Below the pieces are notes generated by a model. That model had not been told where the DNA came from. It was given only the letters and a program-made list of their open reading frames with translations, and did no database searches. DNA of 64,000 nt. Source: Escherichia phage nepoznato. This document shows, piece by piece, positions 1,001 through 52,720 of the stretch (positions are counted from its first letter, which is position 1; the number at the start of each line of letters is the position of its first letter). Location of the stretch: sequence record NC_052658.1, one strand, 5' to 3'. The translations under genes and the position numbers were made by a program.

Positions 1001-1249
1001 GCGCTTATATTGCATAGATAATCATGGGTAGATGATAATGGTTATCATTGCACTAGAAAGGAGGTAAAAGGGTGTTTTTGATGGTTTGTTGTTGGTTGTT
1101 GATCGATTTTAACCGCTCTAAATGGCTCTCTAACAGCCTGTAACCCTGGGAGGTATGGTTATTCGTTTGCTGGTTGATTAGCTCGATACCGCGATTTATT
1201 CAGTTTTGTTCTGTGTCGGTTTTTCATAGGCGGAAGCTATCAATATTGT

Positions 1250-1283
1250 TCGGGCAAAAATAAAGGGCGCTTAGTGCGCCCCT
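1250..1283 (-). terminator. Rho-independent terminator after leftward gene 1293-1661
   Basis: GGGCGC-loop-GCGCCC hairpin followed by T-run on minus strand. Confidence 0.6.
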
Positions 1284-1292
1284 TGTATAATC

Positions 1293-1661
1293 TTACTTTG
1301 TGCTGTTGTAAACGTTATCGCGTTCAACCATCACCGCAAGGCGGATCAGTTGATCAGTTGTATCGCGTAAATTGTCGGGCCATGTTTTACTGTTCCAGCT
1401 ATCCAGGTTTGATTGTATATAGGTTTCAATGGCTTGATCCATATTATCAAACAAGTTTTCCTCCAGGCTCTCGGCTGTTTCACACTGGAAAGCATTAGCG
1501 ACACTATTAATCAATAAGCAAGCCAGTAAATCAGCGTTGCGCCAATTTTTACGGATAGTTTCATCTGTCAGATAACCAACGAGATTAACCTTTGCGCCAG
1601 TGGTGGACGTTGCGATCACTTCTTGCGCTTTTTCAACTGCTTTAATTGCTGATTTGCTCAT
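1293..1661 (-). CDS. Hypothetical early protein (about 122 aa); start moved to internal Met
   Basis: Conserved leader element lies inside the ORF-track N-terminus; RBS AGAGGAAAAG before ATG at 1661. Confidence 0.55.
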   Translation of the reverse strand: MSKSAIKAVEKAQEVIATSTTGAKVNLVGYLTDETIRKNWRNADLLACLLINSVANAFQCETAESLEENLFDNMDQAIETYIQSNLDSWNSKTWPDNLRDTTDQLIRLAVMVERDNVYNSTK

Positions 1662-1690
1662 CTTCTTTTCCTCTTTGTGGGCTTGCTGTA

Positions 1691-1737
1691 TTGCTCGCCC
1701 TACGTGATAAATAATAATATAAGGGTGATCCCGTGTC
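1691..1737 (-). promoter_or_regulatory. Early promoter (TTGACA / TATTAT) plus conserved leader box
   Basis: Reverse complement reads TTGACA-N17-TATTAT-TTATCACGTAGGGCG. Confidence 0.55.
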
Positions 1738-1913
1738 AATAGGTAGAATTGTAAAGATTTGATAGTTTATCTCTTTGATGCTTTGTTGTTTGATAGATGT
1801 TAGCTATCAATATATAGCGGGGTCGTCCGGTGATTATCTTCCCTGTTTCCAGTGCCGCCCGTTCAATAAGCATAACAAAAAACAGGACAAAAACAAGCCC
1901 TGTTTTGTAAAGA

Positions 1914-2147
1914 TTAGATGATCTGCATATCTTCCACGATAATTTCTAATTTCCAAACAAGATGATCTAAGCTCCCTGATAAAAATGATTCCGATACATA
2001 ACCGCCATCGGACACCGTAGCAAGGATCTCGCCATTTGCTTGCTCTTTGATTTGAACATCCAGGCGGTTAGCCTTTGCTTTGTTCAGGACGGCGATCAGG
2101 CGGTTAGCTGTAGTCATGATGTTTCTCTCTTCTGTTGTGAGCGGCAC
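1914..2147 (-). CDS. Hypothetical early protein (77 aa)
   Basis: ORF with RBS; own promoter upstream. Confidence 0.6.
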   Translation of the reverse strand: MPLTTEERNIMTTANRLIAVLNKAKANRLDVQIKEQANGEILATVSDGGYVSESFLSGSLDHLVWKLEIIVEDMQII

Positions 2148-2198
2148 TATTGCCGCCCTACGTGATAAACTTTACTACCTGTTGCGCCTGCTGTCAAA
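2143..2198 (-). promoter_or_regulatory. Early promoter TTGACA-N-TAAAGT plus conserved leader stem-loop
   Basis: -35 near 2193-2198, -10 near 2169-2174, hairpin GGCGGCA/TGCCGCT. Confidence 0.6.
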
Positions 2199-2313
2199 CT
2201 ATTTTTTCTTTGCTTCCATTCGTCTAAGGTTACGGCTTGACTTGTTACGCAAGGCGCTCAAATCATCATAACCTTTAAAAGGTTGCATATTGTTCGGATT
2301 CATGCTACGCCCC

Positions 2314-2592
2314 TTAACGGTTATAAACGTCGTGAATAGTGATAAAGGCGCTACGACCATAAGCCGCCAAATCGGGATTGATCCAAGTGTTATCTAACAG
2401 TGTTTCAAGGACGATAGAATCATCATGAATAGCATCATAGAAATCAGGATGTATGATCGTTTCAATATCGTCCGGTGTTAGTTCCCAATTAAGGTTGCAA
2501 ACCGCTAAAACGTCTACCAATAACTTCCAATCTTGCAAATTAGTGGTTAATACTGTTTTCATTTCTTCGGTAGTGAGTTTAACGATGGTCAT
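2314..2592 (-). CDS. Hypothetical early protein (92 aa)
   Basis: ORF; promoter TTGCAA-N-TATAAT upstream. Confidence 0.6.
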   Translation of the reverse strand: MTIVKLTTEEMKTVLTTNLQDWKLLVDVLAVCNLNWELTPDDIETIIHPDFYDAIHDDSIVLETLLDNTWINPDLAAYGRSAFITIHDVYNR

Positions 2593-2599
2593 GATATTT

Positions 2600-2680
2600 T
2601 CTCTTTTTGATGAGGCGGAAAGTGTTCCCGCTCTCGATGTGAAACATTATACAACACTAAAAACTGATTGCAAGTGTTTT
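2600..2680 (-). promoter_or_regulatory. Early promoter (TTGCAA-N-TATAAT) plus leader stem-loop
   Basis: Direct reading of reverse complement. Confidence 0.6.
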
Positions 2681-2683
2681 TAA

Positions 2684-3013
2684 TTATCGCTTGCTATTCT
2701 CTTTCTCTACTTCCCCGATAGCATCGCAAAATTGATTGATAACATCAGGGTGAACGTCAATAGCGTCAAACAATCCGCTATTAGTTGCATTTTGTAAAGC
2801 AATAGACAATTCAGCCAGGGCGTTCAATTGTTTTACACGGAATTGATCGCGGATTGAATCCATATATTCCATCACTGCACTTTCCAGTGTTTCCCATGTA
2901 GTCGCTGCACCTTCGCCTACAGTTACATCCCACAAATTAGACTCGATTTGAGTCAGTACTACAGTTGGGCGACCAGCAACAACACTGCGGGCTAATTCGA
3001 TTTCATTAAACAT
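2684..3013 (-). CDS. Hypothetical early protein (109 aa)
   Basis: ORF; leader hairpin at about 3031-3050. Confidence 0.55.
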   Translation of the reverse strand: MFNEIELARSVVAGRPTVVLTQIESNLWDVTVGEGAATTWETLESAVMEYMDSIRDQFRVKQLNALAELSIALQNATNSGLFDAIDVHPDVINQFCDAIGEVEKENSKR

Positions 3014-3089
3014 TTTATTTTCCTCTTTGTGGGGAGAACTATTCTCCCCTTCATGTAAAACAGTCTACAGGTTTATTTCTCAATGTCAA

Positions 3090-3269
3090 CTATTTATTAT
3101 CGGGATTGTAAGCCAGGACCGCGCCACTTGCTTTCACCGCCCCAGCCTCATAGCTGCGTAAATCTTCCTCGGTGATATTCATTGCGATCACTTCCTCGAC
3201 CTCTACGCCAGTAGCAAGGGCGATCTCTTTGATGATATTTGATGTTTTGATAATGTCGATAGTTTTCAT
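3090..3269 (-). CDS. Hypothetical small protein (about 59 aa); start moved to MKTID
   Basis: RBS AAGGGG before ATG at 3269. Confidence 0.5.
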   Translation of the reverse strand: MKTIDIIKTSNIIKEIALATGVEVEEVIAMNITEEDLRSYEAGAVKASGAVLAYNPDNK

Positions 3270-3279
3270 AGTAAGCCCC

Positions 3280-3399
3280 TTACAGAAGAATAGCCGCGAT
3301 GGTTGAAATGAAAGCAATAACAGCGACGATGATCATCATGTTTTTACCTTCGGTTACTGCTACGTTTTCGGTGCTGTATTCTACGGTATATTTGCTCAT
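3280..3399 (-). CDS. Small hydrophobic (transmembrane) peptide, about 39 aa
   Basis: RBS GAGGG; hydrophobic C-terminus MMIIVAVIAFISTIAAILL. Confidence 0.45.
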   Translation of the reverse strand: MSKYTVEYSTENVAVTEGKNMMIIVAVIAFISTIAAILL

Positions 3400-3488
3400 C
3401 TTTCTACCCTCGTTTGTGGTTGGCTGTTGTCGCCGCCCTATGTATTTAATATACACTACCACGGCAGCATTGCAAGTTTATTTTGCAA

Positions 3489-3779
3489 TTATTTTTCTTC
3501 TGTAAAAAGCCCATCATTAACAACGGCGGCGATGATTTCACGGGCCATTGATTCGGGAAACGGTAGGCTATAATCCTGGCTTGTTTCATCTTCGCAAGAT
3601 ACCCAATGATAAGCTAATGAATAATACCCCTTAGAAACGGTTTTCAGGCTAACAATGATCACGGTGTTTTGTTCGTTGGTAAACGTCGCCGTGATGGTCT
3701 GGTCGTTTTGCACCATATCCATCAAACGGGCGTTATCATTTACCAGGGAAAACATTAGCACGGTGTTAGCTTTACTCAT
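3489..3779 (-). CDS. Hypothetical early protein (about 96 aa)
   Basis: Start set at MSKAN after the leader hairpin. Confidence 0.55.
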   Translation of the reverse strand: MSKANTVLMFSLVNDNARLMDMVQNDQTITATFTNEQNTVIIVSLKTVSKGYYSLAYHWVSCEDETSQDYSLPFPESMAREIIAAVVNDGLFTEEK

Positions 3780-3850
3780 GATTGCATCCTCAAAGGGGCG
3801 CGGCACCATTGCCGCCCTACACGATAACTATAACACAATGTAAAACAGGA

Positions 3851-4057
3851 TCAACCTTTATTTTTCCACGGTGTCAGCTTGTTAATCATTGGTGATAAAT
3901 AGCGTTTACCAACGTAAAACAGTACGCCAACTGATGCAACGGCGGCGACCTCATGCATAGCCGACGGGAAACGGGTATCATAATAAGATCCAATAATAGC
4001 GATAGCGGCAACGGCTGCAACGTCGATAATGATTTTTTCTTGTTTTGCGGTGATCAT
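3851..4057 (-). CDS. Small membrane protein (68 aa)
   Basis: Two hydrophobic segments. Confidence 0.55.
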   Translation of the reverse strand: MITAKQEKIIIDVAAVAAIAIIGSYYDTRFPSAMHEVAAVASVGVLFYVGKRYLSPMINKLTPWKNKG

Positions 4058-4142
4058 AATATTTACCTTTTTGTATGGTGGGGAACTATTCCCCGCCTGA
4101 TGTAATACAGTTTAACAGGTCCGGTTATGGTGTCAACCGTTT

Positions 4143-4328
4143 TTAAAGATATTTTATGCTAATAACGTTTTCCGGTTTAACCTTGTTATAATGTGCATCA
4201 ACATAGATCAAACCATCGTCAGAAAAGCCCAGGATCACGCCCTGCGCAATAAAACCGTATTCGTCACGGTAACGCACGGCTATTTTTAATGTTGCGCTGT
4301 ACGCTGTTTTAAGCTCGTTTAAAGTCAT
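4143..4328 (-). CDS. Hypothetical small protein (61 aa)
   Basis: ORF with RBS GAGGATAAA. Confidence 0.55.
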   Translation of the reverse strand: MTLNELKTAYSATLKIAVRYRDEYGFIAQGVILGFSDDGLIYVDAHYNKVKPENVISIKYL

Positions 4329-4348
4329 TTTTGTTTATCCTCTACATG

Positions 4349-4966: not shown

Positions 4967-5188
4967 TTATTTACTTACAACCAGTTGATAACCGTTTTCT
5001 ACATTGCTAAACACTGTTAGCCCGTCGTCGCGCTCACTCATCAACAAGCAAGGCGATAACATGCGTTCGGCAGCTTTACACTCATTATAAGCGGCAGTGA
5101 TGTCTCCTGCTGCCTTGTCTTCTGTAGTAAATGTCTCGTTTACGTAAACCTGACCAGCAACAACGGCGACAATAGCAAAAGTAATCAT
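4967..5188 (-). CDS. Hypothetical early protein (73 aa)
   Basis: ORF; TTGACT-N-TATAAT promoter at about 5231-5262. Confidence 0.55.
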   Translation of the reverse strand: MITFAIVAVVAGQVYVNETFTTEDKAAGDITAAYNECKAAERMLSPCLLMSERDDGLTVFSNVENGYQLVVSK

Positions 5189-5262
5189 GATGTTTCCTTG
5201 TTAATAGTGGTTTCTCTTCTCTATAGCGCCCATTATAAAGCGCTATAACGAAAAGTCAACGA

Positions 5263-5430
5263 TTATTTTTTAAGGCTTAAAGTACCTAACTTGTCAGCAT
5301 GACGCAGACCAGGGAAGATCCATTTGCCTGATTCATCTTTTACCGGAGCTTTAAGCGTAGCGCCCAGGTTGGCGGCGTTAACTTTACGTGCAACGTTGCG
5401 AGCGGCTTCACGGGTAGCGCAAGTGATCAT
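5263..5430 (-). CDS. Hypothetical small protein, about 55 aa, not in the ORF track
   Basis: ATG downstream of leader hairpin 5457-5477. Confidence 0.45.
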   Translation of the reverse strand: MITCATREAARNVARKVNAANLGATLKAPVKDESGKWIFPGLRHADKLGTLSLKK

Positions 5431-5526
5431 GATGTTTTCCTCTTCTCTTTGTTAGGCGGTGGACCATTCCGCCGCCTTGATGTAATACAGTTTACTCTTT
5501 TTCTTTCCGGTGTCAACAATCTTTTT

Positions 5527-5754
5527 TCAGATTAATTCATCCAGGCATAACAGGCGATCAACGTTGAGATCGGTTAGGCTGATGGTTGGCACCTGGTAGG
5601 ATTCGATGTACTCAACGCTCGACCATTGCCCGAAGTTAGCGACCGCCCAGCTATTCAAGGAAGAGTGAAGATCATCCCCTTTCTTCTCGGTGATAACTGC
5701 TACTACCTGGGAAGTGCCAACGGTGCCGGATACGCGAACAATATTGATAGCCAT
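5527..5754 (-). CDS. Hypothetical early protein (75 aa)
   Basis: ORF with own promoter. Confidence 0.6.
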   Translation of the reverse strand: MAINIVRVSGTVGTSQVVAVITEKKGDDLHSSLNSWAVANFGQWSSVEYIESYQVPTISLTDLNVDRLLCLDELI

Positions 5755-43480: not shown

Positions 43481-45259
43481 GTGTCGCACATTATAACTAA
43501 ATATGGATTTGATGTTGATCTTAGCAAGGAAGGACATACAGGTTGTCCGCGCTGCATGAAAAATGGCAAGGATCGCTCTCGTAATAACCTGATGGTTTAC
43601 GGATTAGATTCTAATGGAGAGCATAAAGGTGCTAAGTGCTTTGCGTGTGAATACACTATTCCTAGCGTAGAATGGTTACGAGAAAATGGTGAAGTTTTAG
43701 AAGAAGAGGAGGAGATTGTGGGTTCGGAATTTAATAAACAGATTCATCGTAAAATTGTTCAAGAAACATCAACCAACCCACGTGGTTATCGAGGCATTAA
43801 AGAAAAAGTTTCATCTTTCTATGGTGTTCGTTATGAATACCGTCAGGAAGGGGATCAGATGGTAGTAGAAAGTTGTTTATATCCAACTACCATCGGTAAA
43901 GAATTGGTTGGTTTTAAGCGTCGTATTCATCCTAAAGATTTCAGTAAACCTATTGGTCAAGTAGGTAAAGATGTAGATCTTTTTGGACAAATTCGTTTTG
44001 CAGACCGTTCTCATACTGTTGTAATTACAGGTGGTGAACACGATGCTCTGGCAGCTTATCAAATGCTATCTGAAAACTTGGACAGTAAATATGAGCTTCC
44101 AGCCGTAGTAAGTGGCACAACTGGTGAAACCAGTATGTATAAACAAGTTCAGGCACAATATCCTTTCTTTGAAAAATTTAAGAAGATTATTGTTTGCATG
44201 GATAACGACAAAGCAGGTAACGAGGCATTTGAAAATATTGTTAAGGTGCTGCCTCGTAACAAAGTCTACCGTATGCAGATGGATCTTAAGGATGCCAATC
44301 AGTATCTGGAAGAAGGTCGTGCAAAAGATTTCGTAAAAGCTTTTTGGAGTGCTCGTCTATACACCCCAGCAGGTGTTTATGCTTCTAATGTCTTGTATGA
44401 AGCTGCATTGGAATGCTTGGAATCCAAGATGATTACCTTGCCTCCTTTTATGCGTGTTGCTGCAAATATGTTGGGTGGTGGTTTAGTAGAGGAAGAGATT
44501 ACAGTCATCCTGGCAAAGACCAGTATCGGTAAAACTTTGATGGTGAACGAGATCACCAAACATATTATTGTTGCACACCCAGAACATACCCTAGGTATTC
44601 TGTCCTTGGAAGCAACTTATAAAAAGTATTCTCGTAACCTGTTATCCTCTTTCCTACACATTCCTCTACACAGGAAAACACCAGAAGAGAAATTTCAAAT
44701 CTTGGAAGAGAATAAAGAAAAAATCCTAGATTTTTACGAAAGAGAAGATGGATCACCACGTTTTTATGTGTGTGATGATCGTGGAGCAGATGTGGAGTCT
44801 ATCAAAGAAAAAGTTTTGGAGATGATCATCTATTTTGGAGTAACAATTCTTGTTATCGACCCTTATTCTGATTTGCTTTCTGGTATGGATGTTCAAGCCC
44901 AGGAAGAGTTAGCAACATGGTTGAAGCGAATCATGAAAGAGTATGCTATAACTATTATCGTCATCTCACACGTTAAGAAGTCAGCTAACGGTGGCAATGA
45001 GCACTTAACAGAGGACGATGCAATGGGTAGTAGTTTCTTGGCTAAAGGTGCTGGTATTACCTTGGCTTTGGAACGAGATAAGGCTGCTGAAGATCCTGTA
45101 GAACGTAATACAACTCATTGCTTTATCCTAAAAAACCGTGAGTTCTCGGAGACTGGTCCAGCAGGGCAGTTTTACTATGACATTAGAACTGCAACTCTTC
45201 ACGACAAAGAGCAGTATTTTAACAACCCTGCTAACTTACCTACGGATAGCAACTACTAA
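43481..45259 (+). CDS. Bifunctional DNA primase-helicase (T7 gp4-like)
   Basis: N-terminal Cys4 zinc site, TOPRIM motifs GGEHD and DNDKAG, Walker A AKTSIGKT. Confidence 0.8.
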   Translation: MSHIITKYGFDVDLSKEGHTGCPRCMKNGKDRSRNNLMVYGLDSNGEHKGAKCFACEYTIPSVEWLRENGEVLEEEEEIVGSEFNKQIHRKIVQETSTNPRGYRGIKEKVSSFYGVRYEYRQEGDQMVVESCLYPTTIGKELVGFKRRIHPKDFSKPIGQVGKDVDLFGQIRFADRSHTVVITGGEHDALAAYQMLSENLDSKYELPAVVSGTTGETSMYKQVQAQYPFFEKFKKIIVCMDNDKAGNEAFENIVKVLPRNKVYRMQMDLKDANQYLEEGRAKDFVKAFWSARLYTPAGVYASNVLYEAALECLESKMITLPPFMRVAANMLGGGLVEEEITVILAKTSIGKTLMVNEITKHIIVAHPEHTLGILSLEATYKKYSRNLLSSFLHIPLHRKTPEEKFQILEENKEKILDFYEREDGSPRFYVCDDRGADVESIKEKVLEMIIYFGVTILVIDPYSDLLSGMDVQAQEELATWLKRIMKEYAITIIVISHVKKSANGGNEHLTEDDAMGSSFLAKGAGITLALERDKAAEDPVERNTTHCFILKNREFSETGPAGQFYYDIRTATLHDKEQYFNNPANLPTDSNY

Positions 45260-45280
45260 GGGCTTCGGCCCTTTTATTAA
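45258..45280 (+). terminator. Rho-independent terminator AAGGGC-TTCG-GCCCTT + T-run
   Basis: Direct reading. Confidence 0.7.
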
Positions 45281-45289
45281 AAATACCTG

Positions 45290-45318
45290 TTGACAACTTT
45301 GCGGAAGGGACTTATACT
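45290..45318 (+). promoter_or_regulatory. Promoter TTGACA-N17-TATACT
   Basis: Direct reading. Confidence 0.6.
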
Positions 45319-45351
45319 TGTCTCATCAACCAAACAAGAGGAGAAGTAAAA

Positions 45352-45783
45352 ATGCGTATGACAATCGATCTGAATGCAAAAGTTAAAGCTGCTGGTGCTC
45401 TAGGTGCTGGTGTTATTAAACACAAACAAGCGTTGGCATTTGCCATCCCACACATGATTGTTGAGGATCATCCTGAAGAGTTTGCTGTAAAAGTTGTTGA
45501 GAACAATGTCTCTGTTATTGAGTATATCCCAACTGGACGTTCTTACCGTGTTGTTTCTTCTAAAGGTTTCCGTTTCGATGTAAGCCCTTCTTTCACAAAA
45601 GGTGCTGGTCGTAGTAAAGTGGGTATTCTTTCTTACAAATATTATATCGATAAAGTTGCAGATGGTGTTGCATTCTGTCGTGTAAGTGAAGGTAAAGTAG
45701 ATATCATCTTTAAAAATACCAAAAACATGGTTATTTCTGATGATGGTAAAGTTGACCTCACTATTGAGTTCGCTAACAACTAA
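45352..45783 (+). CDS. Hypothetical protein (143 aa)
   Basis: RBS GAGGAGAAG. Confidence 0.55.
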   Translation: MRMTIDLNAKVKAAGALGAGVIKHKQALAFAIPHMIVEDHPEEFAVKVVENNVSVIEYIPTGRSYRVVSSKGFRFDVSPSFTKGAGRSKVGILSYKYYIDKVADGVAFCRVSEGKVDIIFKNTKNMVISDDGKVDLTIEFANN

Positions 45784-45792
45784 GGAGGACTA

Positions 45793-46587
45793 TTGAGCAA
45801 GTTGAACACACTTGATCAATATTACACTAACCCCGCTTATGCGGGGTTCTTATGTGATAAGATCAAAGAAATTTTTGGAGAGGAAGCTAACTACGTAGAA
45901 CCATCTGCGGGAGAAGGGGCTTTCTCTTCTTGTTTTAAAAACATAACTTCTTTTGATATTGACCCTAAGTTTGAAGATTGTATTGAGGCAGATTTTTTAG
46001 CTCAATCTGTTGAGTCTGTTGGCAGTGTAACTGCTTTTGTCGGTAATCCTCCGTTTGGAAAAAATGCTAGTCTTGCCATTAAGTTCTTTAACCATTGTGC
46101 TGAAATGTTGGATAACGAAGGTGGTATTTGTTTTATCTTGCCTCGCACATTTCAAAAAATCTTTTTTGCACACAAACTAAATCCCCACATGCATCTTCTT
46201 TACGAAGAAGAATGTCCAAAAGGATCTTTTATTCTTCATGGAGAACCTTGGGATGTTCCTTGTGTATTCCAGATATGGATTAAACGCAACGAGAAGCGTT
46301 CTCCCGTTGTTTTAGGAGAAAATCGACTATTCGTATTAGGCAACAGTAAAGACTACGACATAGCCGTTAGGAGAGCGGGAGCAAGTGCAGGTAAAGTGTT
46401 ATCAGAAGAGGATTCTTTATCTGAAGCATCTACCTATTTTTTAAAAGCCTTGACTTCTGATCTTAAAACGCGTATCATTGAGGCTTACCCGTTACTTAAA
46501 GCTGAAGCTAGTAAAACTGCGGGAGTAAGAAGTTTAAGTTTAAAAGAACTTCAGTGGGTTCTGGAGAACATTAGAAAGGAGGAATAG
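45793..46587 (+). CDS. DNA N6-adenine (amino) methyltransferase
   Basis: AdoMet motif EPSAGEGAF; catalytic GNPPFG. Confidence 0.7.
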   Translation: MSKLNTLDQYYTNPAYAGFLCDKIKEIFGEEANYVEPSAGEGAFSSCFKNITSFDIDPKFEDCIEADFLAQSVESVGSVTAFVGNPPFGKNASLAIKFFNHCAEMLDNEGGICFILPRTFQKIFFAHKLNPHMHLLYEEECPKGSFILHGEPWDVPCVFQIWIKRNEKRSPVVLGENRLFVLGNSKDYDIAVRRAGASAGKVLSEEDSLSEASTYFLKALTSDLKTRIIEAYPLLKAEASKTAGVRSLSLKELQWVLENIRKEE

Positions 46588-49500
46588 TGAGTAAGTTTAC
46601 ATGGGATATTGAAGCAAACGGATTGTTGAATAATGATACTATTGATTATTTAGCTAGTCCTTATCGTCTCAAAGACACATTTCAAATGCACTGTATTGTC
46701 TTAGAGAACCATGAAACAGGAGAAATAGTAGCTTTCCACGATGGCCCTAAATACATTTTTGATGGTCGTCCTTATGAAGAGTCAGATGATAAATATACAT
46801 ATGTTCTTAAAGAATATGTGGCGCAAGATTACACACATTTTCAACTAAAAGATTTCCCAGATTTTATTAATCATGAAGGTTATTTTAAAGACAAGCCTGA
46901 ATATTTGGTTGAAATGGCTGTGGCACACAACGGTATCAACTATGACTGGTTGGCTACAAAACTGTTTTATGGATTAGATTACAGTGTTAAATATAACACG
47001 TGGGGTAAAAGCAAGGTAAAACTTATTGACTCCTTAATTTTGAGTAAAGTGTTAAACCCAGATCGAAAGATTGAGGGCAAATCAGGACATAGTTTGGCAG
47101 CACTTTCTCGAAAGGCAGGCGGGGATGTAAAAATAGATTTCCGTAAAGAGATTCCAGAAGAAGATCGATTTAAGACTTTTGCTGCGGATATGCTTTATTA
47201 CTGTATCTATGATAACAAAGCCAACACAAGTGTATATAATTACCTCATGGAAGAATGGGGTGATTATGATAAATGGGAAGGTCCATTTGAACTTGAACAA
47301 CGTGTAGCAGACATTATCACGCGCCAGGAACACCGTGGGTTTGCTTTTAACATGAAGCAAGCAGAAGAGAACCTTGCTTTTTTGGATGCAGAAATGGAAC
47401 GTCTTCGTTTACTCGTTGAGCCTATTTTGCCACCTAAACCAGCAACAAAAGGTTATCTTAAAGCTTTTATTCCGCCTAAATTGCAAATTAAAAAGAACCT
47501 CGAACCAACTAACCATATGATCAATTTTGCTAAAAAACATGATGGTCATTTGGAAGAGAGGGATGGCGATTGGTGGTTAGTTATGTTGGGGAAAGAGTGG
47601 AAACTGCCAGTTGCAGCAGATGAGCCTTTGTGTGATCCTAATATCCCTGCAACATTGAACGATACAACCCATATTAAAAACTGGCTTGTAGGATTAGGTT
47701 GGGTACCGTCTGAATATAAAGATAAAGACTTGACTCTTAAATCTGGCACCAAGATTAAAAAGAGTGAGGAAGAACTTCAGAAAGGTATTCGAGCTTACAT
47801 TGAGCAAACTCTATCTTCTAATTTTTGTCAGGATCGTTGTGATCATCTGGAGTGCACACCGGAAACCTTGGAAAGGAAGATTCAAGAGCGTATAGCAAAA
47901 GGTAAAGGTCGCGGTCTTAAAGTATTGACTAACCCATGTTTTACCAAAGGTCAGGAAAAAGAAATTTGTCCTAACCTGCAAGCTTTGGGTGAGAAATTTC
48001 CTTATGCTACACAGATTGTAGAATACTTAACGTATAAACACCGTAGGAACTCTATTTTAGGTGGTGGTGCCGATTGGGAAGAAGACGAAGAAGATCAAGA
48101 ATACAACAAAGGTTTCTTGGCAGCAGTTCGTGCAGATGGACGTATACCTACGCCAGCGGCTACATGCGATGCAGCAACCTCTCGTATGAAGCATAGGTCT
48201 GTAGCCAATATTCCTCGTGTTACCTCTTTGTTTGGATGGCAGATGCGTAACCTGTTTGGTGTAGAGGTTCCTAAATACTTCCAGATTGGTTATGACTTTG
48301 ATTCATTAGAGGCGAAGATTGAGTCGCATTATACGTGGAGATATGATAATCCTGATCATGCTTACTGTAATGCACTTCTGTTAGAAAAACCAAACGATGT
48401 GCATACTATGATGGCAAAACATATTACTGATATTATTGGACGTAAGTTTGAACGTGGTCCTGCTAAGAGCGTTAAATACGGTTGTGTACCTGTAGATAAT
48501 ACGGAAGTGTTAACAAGAACGGGTTGGAAGAAACGTAAAGATCTTTTTGTAGGGGATGAAGTTTTATCTTATAATACTCACACCGCTCTTTACGAATATA
48601 CCCCTATTCTTAAGCTGTGGGACTATAACGATGCAGAAGTTGTCTCTCTCGGTAACAAGTGGTTCAAAGTAGAAGTTACTAACGATCATATGTGGATTAA
48701 CGCACAGAGAAAAACTATGCGATCAGATGGTAACAATGTTAAGTATATGCAAGTGGAGCGTAGATCTACAGAGGATTTAAACTCGGAGTCAAACATAATT
48801 GCAGCAGGGCGATCTGGTGTGGTGTCTACTCTAACAGTGGAAGAAGGTCGTTTCTTAGGCTGGCTTCTTTCGGATGGCTACTATAAGTGGTCTGGCAAAG
48901 CCAGAAATAAAGTAATGGGTATTACAGTCACGGTAGATCAAGATGAGAAAAAATTCTTAGAAGAAGCACGTGAGGCTGTGGGAGATATCTTCACATTTGA
49001 CGAGTATGTATCTGGAACGATGCATTCATTACGTCCTAATAAGAGTCAGTTTAGGGAATTTTTGACTAAATGTGGCGTTGAAGTGGGTCAAAATAAGCAC
49101 GAAGTGGACTGGTCTACATTAATTGCTAATCAAGGTCAAGCTGTGTTGGAAGCATTCTTAGAGGCATTCTGGATGGCAGATGGTCATAAGCGTCCAAACG
49201 GCAGTCTTGTTATCCGTCAAAAGAAAGGTAAGATTAGCGACGCTGTTTCTTTGGCTATCAATATGACAGGTAATATTGCGTATGGTTCTGTTCAAAAAGA
49301 TGGCATGTTAACGTTGGCAATCAATAACGGACAAACTATTTCAGGACAGAGGTTGACAAAAGCTTTTTCACGAGTAACAGATGTATTCTGTATCTCAACC
49401 AAGAATGAATCTTTTGTTATGCGTCAGAATGGTTTTATCACGTTGACAGGTAACTGCACGTACGGCGCTCAAGCAGACAAGGTTGCTAAAACAATTGGTA

Positions 49501-50156
49501 GCGATAAATACACAGGGCAACTGGTGTTCGATGCTTTCTGGGAAGCTGCATTCCCACTGGCGCGTCTTAAAGAACGTTTAAACGATTTCTGGGTTAAGAC
49601 TGGTAAACAGTATGTTTTGGGTATTGACGGTCGTAAGGTTCCTACTCGTTCTGCTCACGCGATTCTTAACTCTCTGTTCCAAAGTGGTGGGGTTATCTGT
49701 GCTAAACGTGCAATGGTTATTTATGACGACATGATCGAAGAAGAAGGGCTAAGTGTTGACTTCTTTAAAGATGACTGGAAGAATAAAGACTTCGTGCAAC
49801 AAATGATTGCATATCACGATGAAGCCCAGCTTGAAGTTTCTCGTAGCCTTGTAGAATTTAAATGGTTTTCACCTGAATCATTAGGTTGGAAGAAAGTAGA
49901 CGATCCTGAAGAACAAAAGAAAATTGATAAAGAATGCCTTGCTAAAGTTGAAGAATGGAAGCATAATAAGGAAAAAGAGACAGGGCAAATTTGGGCTAAC
50001 ATTCATGAATCTCCCAAAGGTGGATGGTTTACAGCCTATAGTCGGGCAGGTGAACTTGCTGCTTTAGCTGTTACTAAGGCTGGAGAATTTTACAATCTTA
50101 ATGTTCAGCTTACTGCCGGATATGATGTGGGTAACTCCTGGGCGAGCTGCCATTAG
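46587..50156 (+). CDS. Family A DNA polymerase with 3-prime to 5-prime exonuclease domain, interrupted by an intein
   Basis: Exo I DIEANG; motif A DFDSLEAKI; motif B PAKSVKYG/CTYG split by intein; motif C YHDE. Confidence 0.85.
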   Translation: MSKFTWDIEANGLLNNDTIDYLASPYRLKDTFQMHCIVLENHETGEIVAFHDGPKYIFDGRPYEESDDKYTYVLKEYVAQDYTHFQLKDFPDFINHEGYFKDKPEYLVEMAVAHNGINYDWLATKLFYGLDYSVKYNTWGKSKVKLIDSLILSKVLNPDRKIEGKSGHSLAALSRKAGGDVKIDFRKEIPEEDRFKTFAADMLYYCIYDNKANTSVYNYLMEEWGDYDKWEGPFELEQRVADIITRQEHRGFAFNMKQAEENLAFLDAEMERLRLLVEPILPPKPATKGYLKAFIPPKLQIKKNLEPTNHMINFAKKHDGHLEERDGDWWLVMLGKEWKLPVAADEPLCDPNIPATLNDTTHIKNWLVGLGWVPSEYKDKDLTLKSGTKIKKSEEELQKGIRAYIEQTLSSNFCQDRCDHLECTPETLERKIQERIAKGKGRGLKVLTNPCFTKGQEKEICPNLQALGEKFPYATQIVEYLTYKHRRNSILGGGADWEEDEEDQEYNKGFLAAVRADGRIPTPAATCDAATSRMKHRSVANIPRVTSLFGWQMRNLFGVEVPKYFQIGYDFDSLEAKIESHYTWRYDNPDHAYCNALLLEKPNDVHTMMAKHITDIIGRKFERGPAKSVKYGCVPVDNTEVLTRTGWKKRKDLFVGDEVLSYNTHTALYEYTPILKLWDYNDAEVVSLGNKWFKVEVTNDHMWINAQRKTMRSDGNNVKYMQVERRSTEDLNSESNIIAAGRSGVVSTLTVEEGRFLGWLLSDGYYKWSGKARNKVMGITVTVDQDEKKFLEEAREAVGDIFTFDEYVSGTMHSLRPNKSQFREFLTKCGVEVGQNKHEVDWSTLIANQGQAVLEAFLEAFWMADGHKRPNGSLVIRQKKGKISDAVSLAINMTGNIAYGSVQKDGMLTLAINNGQTISGQRLTKAFSRVTDVFCISTKNESFVMRQNGFITLTGNCTYGAQADKVAKTIGSDKYTGQLVFDAFWEAAFPLARLKERLNDFWVKTGKQYVLGIDGRKVPTRSAHAILNSLFQSGGVICAKRAMVIYDDMIEEEGLSVDFFKDDWKNKDFVQQMIAYHDEAQLEVSRSLVEFKWFSPESLGWKKVDDPEEQKKIDKECLAKVEEWKHNKEKETGQIWANIHESPKGGWFTAYSRAGELAALAVTKAGEFYNLNVQLTAGYDVGNSWASCH
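48483..49454 (+). mobile_element. Intein (about 324 aa) with LAGLIDADG homing endonuclease domain, in polymerase motif B
   Basis: Starts CVPVDNTEVLT; LGWLLSDGY and LEAFWMADGH blocks; ends TLTGN before Cys; coordinates approximate. Confidence 0.7.
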
Positions 50157-50173
50157 TTAACTCATTGTTTTAT

Positions 50174-50195
50174 AAGGGGCTTCTGCCCCTTTATA
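50174..50195 (+). terminator. Rho-independent terminator AAGGGGC-TTCT-GCCCCTT
   Basis: Direct reading. Confidence 0.65.
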
Positions 50196-50204
50196 GGAGG
50201 AGAT

Positions 50205-50396
50205 ATGCATTACGATTTAGACTGTCTTGGTATGCCTTACCTACCAGATGAATTTGAAGGTGAAGAAGAACGTGAATGGGACGATGGGGATATCCGTTGT
50301 TGGTCTTGTGGTAAAGATATGTCTTATGAACAGCATATGCACAACGATGGCTACTGCATACATTGCTATAATGAAATTGATCTGGAGGAAGATTAA
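50205..50396 (+). CDS. Small acidic zinc-ribbon protein (63 aa)
   Basis: CWSCG...CIHCY; RBS AGGAGGAG. Confidence 0.55.
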   Translation: MHYDLDCLGMPYLPDEFEGEEEREWDDGDIRCWSCGKDMSYEQHMHNDGYCIHCYNEIDLEED

Positions 50397-50563
50397 TGGG
50401 AAATGGTATCATGATTTGCTATAAAATTGTGCGTATTGTCGGAGACGAAATTACCACTCGGTATTTTATGATAGAGTCTCAAGCCGATGATGTTTACAAT
50501 GACTGGCTTGAAAAAGGTGGATACGATTTTGTATCTAAAGAAACTTTCCGTTTAGAAGTATAA
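50396..50563 (+). CDS. Hypothetical small protein, about 55 aa, not in the ORF track
   Basis: TAATG overlap; ends before RBS of next gene. Confidence 0.4.
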   Translation: MGNGIMICYKIVRIVGDEITTRYFMIESQADDVYNDWLEKGGYDFVSKETFRLEV

Positions 50564-50573
50564 GGAGAAAACA

Positions 50574-50792
50574 ATGCGTAAATTAGTGAGCTTTAATGTT
50601 TCAATTCTTGTTGATGAACAAAATGAAGATGTTATTAAAGGTCTTGCAAATAAGATTGAAGGTGGAATGACGGAAGCAGAAGTATGGGAAGAATGTGCTC
50701 GACTTTATGAGGAAGGTGTTATTGAGGTCTTGGGGGATGAGATTAATATGGACGATGTTGTAAAAGTAACTGTGGAGCGTATCCATGACTAA
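50574..50792 (+). CDS. Hypothetical acidic protein (72 aa)
   Basis: RBS AAGGAGAAAA. Confidence 0.55.
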   Translation: MRKLVSFNVSILVDEQNEDVIKGLANKIEGGMTEAEVWEECARLYEEGVIEVLGDEINMDDVVKVTVERIHD

Positions 50793-51378
50793 ATCAAAAC
50801 AAATCAATATTGCCAAAGAAATTCTTACCGTATTAAAGATTGCTGATCCTAATTCTGTCTTGGCTGGCGGCGCTGTTCGTGATTGGCGTATTCTTGATAT
50901 TGCTGGACGTGATCTGGATTTTTACACGTCTCTTCCTGCACATCGATCAGAAGAGCAAATACAAGAATTGATTGCATCTGCTTTGATGGGAACTAATGTT
51001 CGTAAATTAGGAAACAAAGAGGCTTCTGACAATTATGAGGGTGTTACTGGTCTTAAACACGTTTTTGAGTTTGAACATGATGGTCAGCTTTGCAACCTTA
51101 TGATTATGGAACCAAGCGTAATGACAACCTTTCTAAATGAGTTTGATCTGTCCATCTGCCAGGCTGCATTTGATGGGAAGGATTGCTATTATTCTAAAGA
51201 TTTTGAAACAACCTTGGAAACAGGGATCTGCTTCTTGCACAAAGATGTTAGAGAAGATGCCAAACACGTTATTAAAATTGCTACACGTTTCCCATATCTT
51301 CGTTTTGTGAAAGAGGTTAAGGTTCCACGTCCACCTCAAGTAGATACCAGATTGGAAGAAGATGATATTCCTTGGTAA
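50785..51378 (+). CDS. Nucleotidyltransferase (CCA-adding/poly(A) polymerase head-domain-like)
   Basis: GGAVRDWRILDIAGRDLDF. Confidence 0.5.
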   Translation: MTKSKQINIAKEILTVLKIADPNSVLAGGAVRDWRILDIAGRDLDFYTSLPAHRSEEQIQELIASALMGTNVRKLGNKEASDNYEGVTGLKHVFEFEHDGQLCNLMIMEPSVMTTFLNEFDLSICQAAFDGKDCYYSKDFETTLETGICFLHKDVREDAKHVIKIATRFPYLRFVKEVKVPRPPQVDTRLEEDDIPW

Positions 51379-51423
51379 TTAAAGCTTGACAATATTAAAC
51401 ATTTTATGATAGGATAGCATTCA

Positions 51424-51816
51424 ATGACTGAACGTTCTAAGATAGCTGTTGAAACTGTTTATGGAAACTACACCAGTTTGACACTAGTTGAGAAAAATGT
51501 TGTAGGTCTTGACAACTCTTTTTATTTTCAAATTTTGGTTATTCAAGGTGGAAACAAGAAGCTAACTGCTCGTGTCGAAACATCTGAAATAATTGAAACC
51601 ACTGTTACAAACAAAGAATTCATTTCACTGCAAGATACAATCCGAAACGTTATAGACGAAGAAGGCAAAGCTGCCACAATTAAACTCGGAGGTTTCCCAG
51701 TGCAAATAGTTCATTTTCCTAATGGTGAAATTGGAGTTGGAATAGGTAAAGGTAAATACCTGTTAGAGCAAGATGATATGGAAAGACTCCGCTCTTTCTG
51801 TGCAAAATTAATGTAA
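51424..51816 (+). CDS. Hypothetical protein (130 aa)
   Basis: ORF. Confidence 0.55.
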   Translation: MTERSKIAVETVYGNYTSLTLVEKNVVGLDNSFYFQILVIQGGNKKLTARVETSEIIETTVTNKEFISLQDTIRNVIDEEGKAATIKLGGFPVQIVHFPNGEIGVGIGKGKYLLEQDDMERLRSFCAKLM

Positions 51817-51832
51817 TATAGAGGAGATAATA

Positions 51833-52720
51833 ATGTCCATAATTAATACTGAAACTGATCGTAAAGGCAAAACCGTAACTTATGCAACTGGTATCGTAGA
51901 CTACGTTAAACTGGATAAATTCGCTGAACCTAAAACTTTTCATTGGGAAGGAAAAACGATTGTTTCAACTCACCGAGCTTCTCTTGTTCTGAAAGAGAAA
52001 GGTGCTAAACCAGAGGAGAAAGGTGTTTGGATTTCTCTTGGTGATATTGAACTGAAAGAAGGTTATGAAAACCTGCAAGTTAAAGAAGGTGATAACTGGA
52101 TCACTATTGAAAAAGGTGTAGAAGTAAGTATTGATATTGATCGCGTTGACAATAAAGGCGGTAAAACTTACTACAATACTAAAAAATCTCGTATTACAGT
52201 ATTGTCTACCGATGGTGTTCAGAAGTCTAACAAATCTTCTGGCAATAAGGGTTCCAACGATGCTGCTCCTAAACAGTCCTATAAAAAACGTGATACTGTA
52301 GGTCTGGAAACTGGTCACGCAGTAAATGGTGCGCTGGAACTGATTCGTAATGGTGTTAAAGGCGATGCTTTTGATATCGCTGGGGTTGTTCAATCTGCGA
52401 CTGTCACGTTGAAATCGGAAATTGCTGAATCTCGTGGCGTTGATATTAATGATTATGATCTTGGGGCAGCTGTTGGTCACGCTATTCTCAATGCTTGTAA
52501 AGACCATACCATTAAGACTGTCTCTGTAGAAGATCTGATTGATTCTGCTCGTAAAGTTCTGGCTCTGTCTGATAAAGTTGCTGCTGCCATTCGTGGTTCC
52601 GCAGAACAACCTAAGAAAGAAGAGAAGAAAGAAGTTAAAAAGCCTGAACCACAACCAGAACCAACTCCAAGCAATCAAGAAGAACCTCCAATGGACTTCG
52701 ATGATAATATTCCTTTTTGA
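51833..52720 (+). CDS. Single-stranded DNA-binding protein-like
   Basis: C-terminal acidic tail ending DFDDNIPF (E. coli SSB ends DDDIPF). Confidence 0.5.
   Translation: MSIINTETDRKGKTVTYATGIVDYVKLDKFAEPKTFHWEGKTIVSTHRASLVLKEKGAKPEEKGVWISLGDIELKEGYENLQVKEGDNWITIEKGVEVSIDIDRVDNKGGKTYYNTKKSRITVLSTDGVQKSNKSSGNKGSNDAAPKQSYKKRDTVGLETGHAVNGALELIRNGVKGDAFDIAGVVQSATVTLKSEIAESRGVDINDYDLGAAVGHAILNACKDHTIKTVSVEDLIDSARKVLALSDKVAAAIRGSAEQPKKEEKKEVKKPEPQPEPTPSNQEEPPMDFDDNIPF

Follow-up and report, generated by a model that had tools for sequence, protein, structure and literature searches.

A predicted LAGLIDADG intein with a family-wide Thr-Gly-Asn end splits motif B of the DNA polymerase of Escherichia phage nepoznato

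How a family A DNA polymerase could work when its motif B is split by 324 additional residues is the question raised by the plus-strand gene at 46587–50156 in a 64,000-nucleotide (nt) stretch of Escherichia phage nepoznato (NC_052658.1), which we refer to as the window. In the initial annotation, the insert had been read as an intein with two LAGLIDADG-like blocks and a non-canonical C-terminal junction, where Gly and not the usual His precedes the terminal Asn. The question is therefore also whether such an insert can leave the protein by itself, and by which route. On the evidence set out below, we consider that the insert is very probably a standard class 1 intein, both functional and mobile.

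The polymerase precursor is encoded by one uninterrupted open reading frame (ORF) with a GTG start (1189 amino acids (aa) plus stop), and translation of 46587–50156 on the plus strand runs through without an internal stop or frameshift. A disagreement of frame had been suspected near 48420, leaving the coordinates uncertain by about 1 nt, but the ORF frame is continuous, and there is no frame problem at this point because the offset from the start codon to the first base of the insert (48483 minus 46587) is divisible by 3. As for the host protein, PHROG 17 matches the polymerase with E = 9e-103, and the score of the Pfam DNA_pol_A profile rises from 30.8 bits with the insert in place, which is below the cut-off of 34.3 bits, to 50.8 bits in one contiguous match with the insert removed in silico. 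All four motifs recognised in the initial annotation were located in the translation at exact coordinates, these being Exo I of the 3'-5' exonuclease (WDIEANG, 46602–46622), motif A (GYDFDSLEAKI, 48288–48320), motif B (RGPAKSVKYG at 48453–48482 plus CTYGAQ from 49455 onward, split by the insert), and motif C (AYHDEAQLEV, 49809–49838). Both the motifs and the above-threshold profile score thus identify the host protein as a family A DNA polymerase, as first annotated. Its N-extein (46587–48482, aa 1–632) contains Exo I, motif A, and the first half of motif B, and its C-extein (49455–50156, aa 957–1189 plus stop) contains the CTYGAQ half of motif B and motif C. At the DNA level, the gene is 99.2% identical to that of Escherichia phage nieznany (Phapecoctavirus, Stephanstirmvirinae), and the polymerases of nieznany- and ukendt-type coliphages are annotated just as ‘DNA polymerase’ in public records.

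The insert itself (48483–49454, aa 633–956, plus strand) comprises exactly 324 in-frame codons, begins with CVPVDNTEV directly after KYG, and ends with FITLTGN in front of a Cys, and the size and boundaries first proposed are thus borne out by the translation. The initial annotation had also left room for an insert without splicing blocks, but on alignment blocks A, B, F, and G are all present. Here, block A opens with the N-terminal splicing nucleophile Cys1 (48483–48485), while block B (TNDHMW, 48678–48695) supplies Thr66 (B:7), His69 (B:10), and Trp71 (B:12). Block F (DVFCIST, 49380–49400) has Cys303 (nt 49389–49391) at F:4, where Asp is usual, and block G (ITLTGN, 49437–49454) ends the intein with Thr322 (G:5), the penultimate Gly323 (G:6), and the terminal Asn324 (G:7). 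The first C-extein residue is Cys957, or Cys+1 (TGC, 49455–49457). Consequently, the sequence features of a class 1 intein, namely Cys1, the block B Thr-x-x-His, and a C-terminal Asn followed by Cys+1, are found in full, and the presence of Cys+1 sets the insert apart from bacterial intein-like (BIL) domains, which have no +1 nucleophile and mostly undergo cleavage. A penultimate His, which is common but not obligatory in class 1, is replaced by Gly323. Within the insert, a HINT N-lobe (intein aa ~1–107) and a HINT C-lobe (aa ~291–324) enclose a LAGLIDADG endonuclease domain (aa ~108–290). The two LAGLIDADG-like blocks lie at 48852–48884 (FLGWLLSDGYY; predicted helix 119–129) and 49155–49187 (FLEAFWMADGH; predicted helix 219–233), and both show the helix with an acidic residue and then Gly that is expected of such enzymes (LLSDG with catalytic Asp131, WMADG with catalytic Asp233).

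An AlphaFold (AF2) model of the intein, built from an alignment with seven relatives, has a pLDDT of 85 and a pTM of 0.86. When this model was compared with the PDB using Foldseek, the best 15 matches were all endonuclease-containing inteins, with TliVMA at the top (E = 3.8e-15), then PI-SceI, PhoVMA, PI-PfuI, and PI-PkoII, and the stand-alone LAGLIDADG enzymes I-DmoI, I-Tsp061I, and I-WcaI came after the inteins with E about 1e-4. Moreover, in a phmmer search PI-PkoII matches the intein sequence over both LAGLIDADG motifs (E = 1.3e-3), and the profile of the intein family described below matches mini-inteins over blocks A and B. Both a HINT fold and a LAGLIDADG endonuclease fold are thus recovered, and the insert is, as predicted by model and sequence, an intein carrying a two-motif LAGLIDADG homing endonuclease. 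With both catalytic Asp residues intact, endonuclease activity and homing are to be presumed.

The unusual C-terminal junction is best viewed against the relatives of the intein. A word-indexed protein search gave just seven of these, but an exhaustive HMMER search revealed the full family, with 1881 representative proteins at E ≤ 1e-3 and 636 at E ≤ 1e-10. Residues were counted among the best matches covering the whole intein (146; for B:11 and B:12 the counts are out of 163, and for F:4 and G:5 out of 164). None of the 146 departs from Cys1 or from Thr and His of block B, while 145 end in Asn and 144 have Gly just before this last position; at +1, Cys occurs 69 times, Ser 39 times, and Thr 38 times. 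Trp B:12 (160/163), Cys F:4 (160/164), and Thr G:5 (156/164) are retained to a similar degree, and the family consensus ends in I-T-I-T-G-N. Hence, the initial annotation was right about the penultimate Gly, though not in treating it as a peculiarity of this copy. In these alignments, Thr-Gly-Asn is the C-terminal end kept throughout a large family of phage inteins, and the penultimate Gly, along with Cys F:4 and Thr G:5, looks to be the family's conserved active-site solution and no defect. With regard to insertion, 105 of the 146 relatives reside in motif B of family A polymerases, at sites that, counted from the invariant Lys, are +6 as here (68), +5 (21), +3 (10), +2 (4), and +7 (2), and the site just after motif A is occupied in two of the 146, plus the phi92/SD2/KP13-16 coliphage group.

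Some homologues interrupt no host protein. These free-standing proteins (P0004, P0005, and VP14_231 of Vibrio phage VPMCC14) have kept the LAGLIDADG motifs but are without Cys1, the block B Thr and His, Cys F:4, and the Gly-Asn end, from which it follows that the splicing residues are kept only where splicing is needed. Among other members that we looked at individually, the polymerase coding sequence of Pseudomonas phage KIL1 (L005, 1237–4344) is annotated as a two-piece join, yet 1237–4344 translates in one frame without an internal stop and holds a family member (CLPVDSTEV...VTITGN/C, the slash marking the junction), whose site in motif B is four residues earlier than here. Another member is found at aa ~157–498 of Mycobacterium phage Pinkcreek gp135 (L007; end-to-end match, FTGN/S), a 793-aa hypothetical protein adjoining baseplate and tail genes, and the family is therefore not limited to replication proteins. 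Nothing specific to family A polymerase inteins of phages, or to the Pseudomonas KIL phages, turned up in the literature that we searched, and the BASEL supplement has an intein column heading and nothing more on inteins.

The insert is present in 10 of the 126 phage records that match the gene, and in the other records the alignment is broken into two parts, one on either side of it. Once the RefSeq copies of nieznany and ukendt are discounted, the 10 carrier records amount to 8 genomes, namely nieznany, ukendt, AV126, phiWec187, and four that bear the name Campylobacter phage. Since nieznany, ukendt, AV126, and phiWec187 are isolates with complete genomes, for which E. coli is named as host in the record, their polymerase must work. 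In phage ESCO13, the polymerase is 865 aa long, shares ~95% nucleotide identity, and is without exactly these 324 codons, and it reads KSVKYG-I-TYGAQ where nepoznato has KSVKYG-[324 aa]-C-TYGAQ, the native +1 codon being ATC (Ile). The same KSVKYG-I-TYG, without a motif B insert, is found in SD2 and KP13-16, and Ile is thereby the +1 residue in 3/3 examined polymerases that have no motif B intein. As an aside, the four Campylobacter-named records (MG065639, MG065656, MG065645, and MG065689, named A150, C3, A145, and A110a) are unannotated and 146 kb long, show 86% identity to the polymerase, like the phi92-like coliphage phiWec187, with an intein of 99.7% protein identity, and by sequence look like phi92-like coliphage genomes and not Campylobacter phages.

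More conspicuously, a block of 1220 nt (48255–49474, plus strand), made up of the intein with 228 nt upstream and 20 nt downstream, matches phiWec187 except at position 49360, whereas the rest of the polymerase gene is only 60–85% identical to that phage, which belongs to another genus (Justusliebigvirus). In comparison with ESCO13, identity is 95–100% save for ~400 nt upstream of the intein (69–86%) and the first 15 nt downstream, where ATC has become TGC at +1 and four further changes are silent. We read this block as a recent lateral transfer, in the pattern expected of endonuclease-driven homing with co-conversion of the flanks. The +1 Cys thus comes with the intein and displaces the native Ile, rather than being native to the polymerase, and precise loss of the intein would then leave a Cys scar in the O-helix.

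Co-conversion also bears on a second intein site in the same gene, just after motif A. This site (ESHY/TWRY, between 48332 and 48333, plus strand) is vacant in nepoznato, where the +1 residue is Thr, whereas a related intein of 245 aa fills it, ahead of a Cys, in phi92, SD2, KP13-16, and ESCO5. In record PQ821640, the phi92/SD2-type polymerase is annotated as ‘intein-containing DNA polymerase precursor’. No genome that we examined contained both inteins; phiWec187 carries the one in motif B but lacks the one after motif A, and the reverse holds for SD2, its near-identical relative. In fact, the co-converted flank in nepoznato spans the motif A site and turns its +1 Cys to Thr. These few genomes suggest that the two inteins displace each other, and the co-converted Thr may protect against, or erase, the motif A intein.

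Could the gene instead be interrupted at the level of RNA or DNA, that is, by an endonuclease-encoding group I intron, by a free-standing homing endonuclease gene, or through an assembly artefact? Motif B of VPMCC14 apparently holds an ORF-less group I intron at the same codon boundary, and there are PHROG families of C-terminal polymerase fragments that start at the insert point. In nepoznato, however, one reading frame runs from the N-extein through the insert into the C-extein, and the insert has neither a stop codon nor a separate start, its HINT lobes wrap the endonuclease, and the same sequence occurs in 10 records, 8 of them distinct. Moreover, an Rfam search of 44000–52000 at E ≤ 0.1 returned no intron or other RNA family, while the same search on the VPMCC14 locus detected two introns, which shows that the method works, and this null result speaks against a group I intron here. 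Altogether, we regard an interruption at the RNA or DNA level as hardly credible.

The VPMCC14 locus (L006; ON922990, 1–4100) is of interest in itself, as its family A polymerase gene is divided among three ORFs, the interruptions being two group I introns that contain no ORF (Rfam RF00028; 92 bits at 1651–1871 and 60 bits at 2245–2465). With splice sites placed by eye, the first intron apparently falls at KGITYG/IMYGA, which is the motif B codon boundary interrupted in nepoznato. The free-standing intein homologue VP14_231 is encoded just downstream of the last polymerase ORF, and from its sequence it looks like an intein-derived endonuclease serving the intron site.

A different objection is that the element is dead or does not splice, in which case the polymerase would be a pseudogene with replication left to another enzyme, or the 324 residues would be kept as an internal domain. 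The missing penultimate His and the very weak matches to curated intein profiles can be cited for this. Nevertheless, the O-helix of motif B is cut between the invariant Tyr-Gly and the next turn, and a 37-kDa domain in the O-helix is incompatible with a working fingers domain of family A polymerases. Furthermore, all splicing residues are intact and are conserved across more than 1800 representatives, the ORF is without a stop codon or frameshift, the carriers are propagating phages, and a member of the family, the intein in the recombination directionality factor (RDF) of phage Bethlehem, does splice. A six-frame translation of the 64-kb window revealed no other member of the intein family, although no other search of the window for a second polymerase was made. 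We therefore think a dead or retained element very improbable.

For the functional, mobile class 1 intein, we infer the following course from sequence and model. The polymerase would be translated as a 1189-aa precursor, in which the HINT lobes (intein aa 1–107 and 291–324) would fold together. Cys1, aided by Thr66 and His69 of block B, would form a thioester at the KYG/C junction, the N-extein would be passed on to Cys+1, and cyclisation of Asn324 would free the intein. The product would be an 865-aa polymerase with an intact motif B (KSVKYG-C-TYGAQ) and with ...SVKYGCTYGAQADK as the ligated junction peptide. In a mixed infection, the double-motif LAGLIDADG domain would cut intein-less alleles at or near ...AAATACGGG/ATCACTTATGG..., a target that we read from the empty allele; on the intein-less polymerase of ESCO13, the putative target spans AAATCTGTTAAATACGGG/ATCACTTATGGTGCACAAGC. 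Repair from the intein-bearing copy would carry in the intein and short flanks, including the TGC codon that would change the native Ile to the obligatory +1 Cys. With respect to the Gly-Asn end, the Bethlehem RDF intein splices completely in E. coli, and substitution of its penultimate Gly by His slows splicing (Kelley et al., 2016; PMC5050341). Class 1 splicing without a penultimate His is shown in that study, and is attributed there as well to Chen, Benner and Perler (2000). As the Bethlehem RDF intein ends in LTGN and splices, the junction that had been flagged is a known and working variant.

Several points weigh against a functional class 1 intein. On the excised insert, Pfam, NCBIfam, and PHROGs gave sub-threshold matches only, to Pfam Hint (E = 0.09), Pfam LAGLIDADG_3 (18.6 bits vs a cut-off of 22.5 bits), and NCBIfam intein_Cterm (12.4 vs a cut-off of 15.6). 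With the curated hidden Markov model (HMM) libraries near-silent, the identification accordingly rests on structure and family searches. Both histidines that usually assist Asn cyclisation are missing, as G:6 is Gly and F:13 is apparently Glu (read by eye from the block F alignment). In block B, position B:11 (intein aa 70, 48690–48692) is Met, where 140/163 relatives have Arg. The spliced polymerase would carry Cys in the O-helix where its relatives have Ile, and since the coliphage copies are near-identical, they give no within-clade sign of purifying selection on the endonuclease. At B:11, P0001 and P0002, which are the closest relatives, show Asn and Glu, and the Met next to the catalytic His is a subgroup-specific change.

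The residues Trp71 (B:12), Cys303 (F:4), and Thr322 (G:5) add a further question, as this same triplet defines the class 3 inteins (PMC2807308, PMC7891396). By a class 3-like or hybrid route, Cys303, and not or not only Cys1, would attack the N-terminal junction to give a branched thioester at block F, followed by transfer to Cys+1. Such a route would make the family a surviving link from class 1 to class 3. In keeping with this, the triplet is strongly conserved (see the counts above), Thr G:5 has been described as typical of class 3 only (PMC7891396), and Cys F:4 is gone from the non-splicing free-standing homologues, which ties it to splicing. Moreover, 3/37 triplet-bearing inteins have Ser or Cys at position 1, with their mechanism left open (Tori et al., PMC2807308), and the class 3 intein AceL NrdHF is also without His at F:13 and G:6 and splices fast (PMC7891396). 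AceL NrdHF is in addition the best PDB sequence match to the family profile (E = 4.2e-5, N-terminal blocks only). We rejected a special kinship with class 3 on this ground, as the match covers blocks A and B only and class 1 mini-inteins score similarly.

Other properties of the family, however, do not fit class 3. Cys1 is invariant, whereas position 1 in class 3 is non-nucleophilic and free to vary, and Thr7 of block B is likewise invariant, though it is dispensable in the class 3 prototype (PMC2807308). Alignment with the class 3 clade is partial and weak (27.7 bits to Catera gp206 and 26.2 bits to Bethlehem gp11 with the family HMM), as against 95.9 and 165.1 bits end to end for the class 1 RDF and Pinkcreek inteins, respectively. 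Catera gp206 was also considered as a Cys1-bearing member of the family and rejected, as it starts with Ala and ends with THN. Class 1 already includes inteins with Cys F:4, which are polyphyletic (PMC3196547), and the related RDF intein is treated as class 1 by Kelley et al. (PMC5050341). All told, a class 3-like route strikes us as improbable. Still, as the free-standing homologues have lost Cys F:4, this residue does matter for splicing, and its possible roles are those of a substitute for Asp F:4, a relay nucleophile, or a redox switch. We find it doubtful that the family, with its invariant Cys1, the class 3 triplet, and the penultimate Gly, still represents the phage-borne class 1 inteins from which class 3 has been proposed to arise, and that it splices by a relay via Cys1 and/or Cys303. 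Having three active-site cysteines (Cys1, Cys303, and Cys+1) might make maturation of the polymerase redox-sensitive.

On either side of the polymerase gene, two further features were noticed. Upstream, the GTG start shares 1 nt with the stop codon of the ORF at 45793–46587 (window positions 46585–46589), which is methyltransferase-like and whose nieznany counterpart is annotated as an N6-adenine methyltransferase. A GGAGG is situated just 5' of this GTG, and together with the overlap it suggests translational coupling of the methyltransferase-like ORF and the polymerase. Downstream, nieznany has an extra ~0.58 kb (L002, ~5092–5674) directly after the polymerase stop codon, which contains a 192-aa ORF (nieznany_206) and is missing both at ~50177–50193 of the window and in ESCO13; in SD2, an annotated HNH endonuclease gene is found at this place. 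Pfam gave no significant match for the nieznany_206 ORF, in which we noticed by eye an AP2-like segment (YKAHIKVDGRIITLGRFDTELEAH), and this may be another mobile endonuclease gene.

Phage inteins without a penultimate His, LAGLIDADG inteins, and DNA polymerase I inteins have all been described before (PMC5050341; PMC4760082), and a paper from 2024 still states that inteins are unreported for E. coli and its phages (PMC11162368). The element of nepoznato is of a known kind. In coliphage SD2, a related intein of the polymerase is already annotated, but the public entries for the nearest relatives of nepoznato leave this copy unannotated, and coliphage inteins are little discussed. As one result, the annotation is corrected to a predicted mature enzyme of 865 aa, and not 1189 aa. 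Moreover, a single essential gene of E. coli phages hosts two related inteins, at sites close to each other, and occurs in natural alleles with and without them; this two-site system is suited for measuring homing, co-conversion, and competition between inteins. The large family, for which Thr-Gly-Asn is the normal end, is a candidate source of inteins that splice without a penultimate His, and the co-occurrence of Cys1 and the class 3 triplet poses a concrete mechanistic question.

In comparison with known systems, the phi92/SD2-type intein is the nearest in context, being found in the same polymerase and the same subfamily (Stephanstirmvirinae). It is related and ~33% identical to the 324-aa intein, starts with CVPMD, and ends with ITITGN/C, but it is located 50 codons upstream, after motif A (ESHY/CWRY), its +1 Cys is also found in the intein-less ESCO13, and it is only 245 aa long, without the first LAGLIDADG region. 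The polA group I introns of phages with a neighbouring endonuclease, as in VPMCC14, share the motif B site and have an endonuclease of the same family nearby. They differ in that removal occurs at the RNA level and in that the endonuclease homologue is free-standing, with the splicing residues all lost. Structurally, PI-SceI, TliVMA, PI-PfuI, and PI-PkoII have in common with the nepoznato intein a split HINT domain with an inserted two-motif LAGLIDADG endonuclease (Foldseek E = 1e-7 to 4e-15, query-normalised TM-scores ~0.6–0.66). In contrast, they are archaeal or yeast inteins with 8–16% sequence identity, have the penultimate His and Asp F:4, and reside in V-ATPase, ribonucleotide reductase (RNR), or family B polymerase. 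Class 3 inteins (MP-Be ‘DnaB’/TerL, MP-Catera gp206, Msm/Mch DnaB1, and AceL NrdHF) show the same triplet and the association with phages, but they have no nucleophile at position 1 and occur mostly in the P-loops of helicases and terminases.

Lastly, the Bethlehem RDF (phosphoesterase) intein, which is gp51 of Kelley et al. (2016) and PBI_BETHLEHEM_52 in AY500153, belongs to the same family as the nepoznato intein by its end-to-end match to the family HMM, though full-length pairwise identity is only 23%. Its endonuclease is toxic in E. coli (PMC5050341). Its host is an actinophage recombination directionality factor/phosphoesterase rather than a polymerase, its +1 residue is Ser and not Cys, and B:12 is Val and not Trp. 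Nonetheless, the two inteins have in common Cys1, the block B TxxH, an inserted LAGLIDADG domain, and a similar size (~317 aa), as well as the V-W-C of block F (EVWC in Bethlehem) and an L-T-G-N end followed by a nucleophile (HLTGN/S in Bethlehem).

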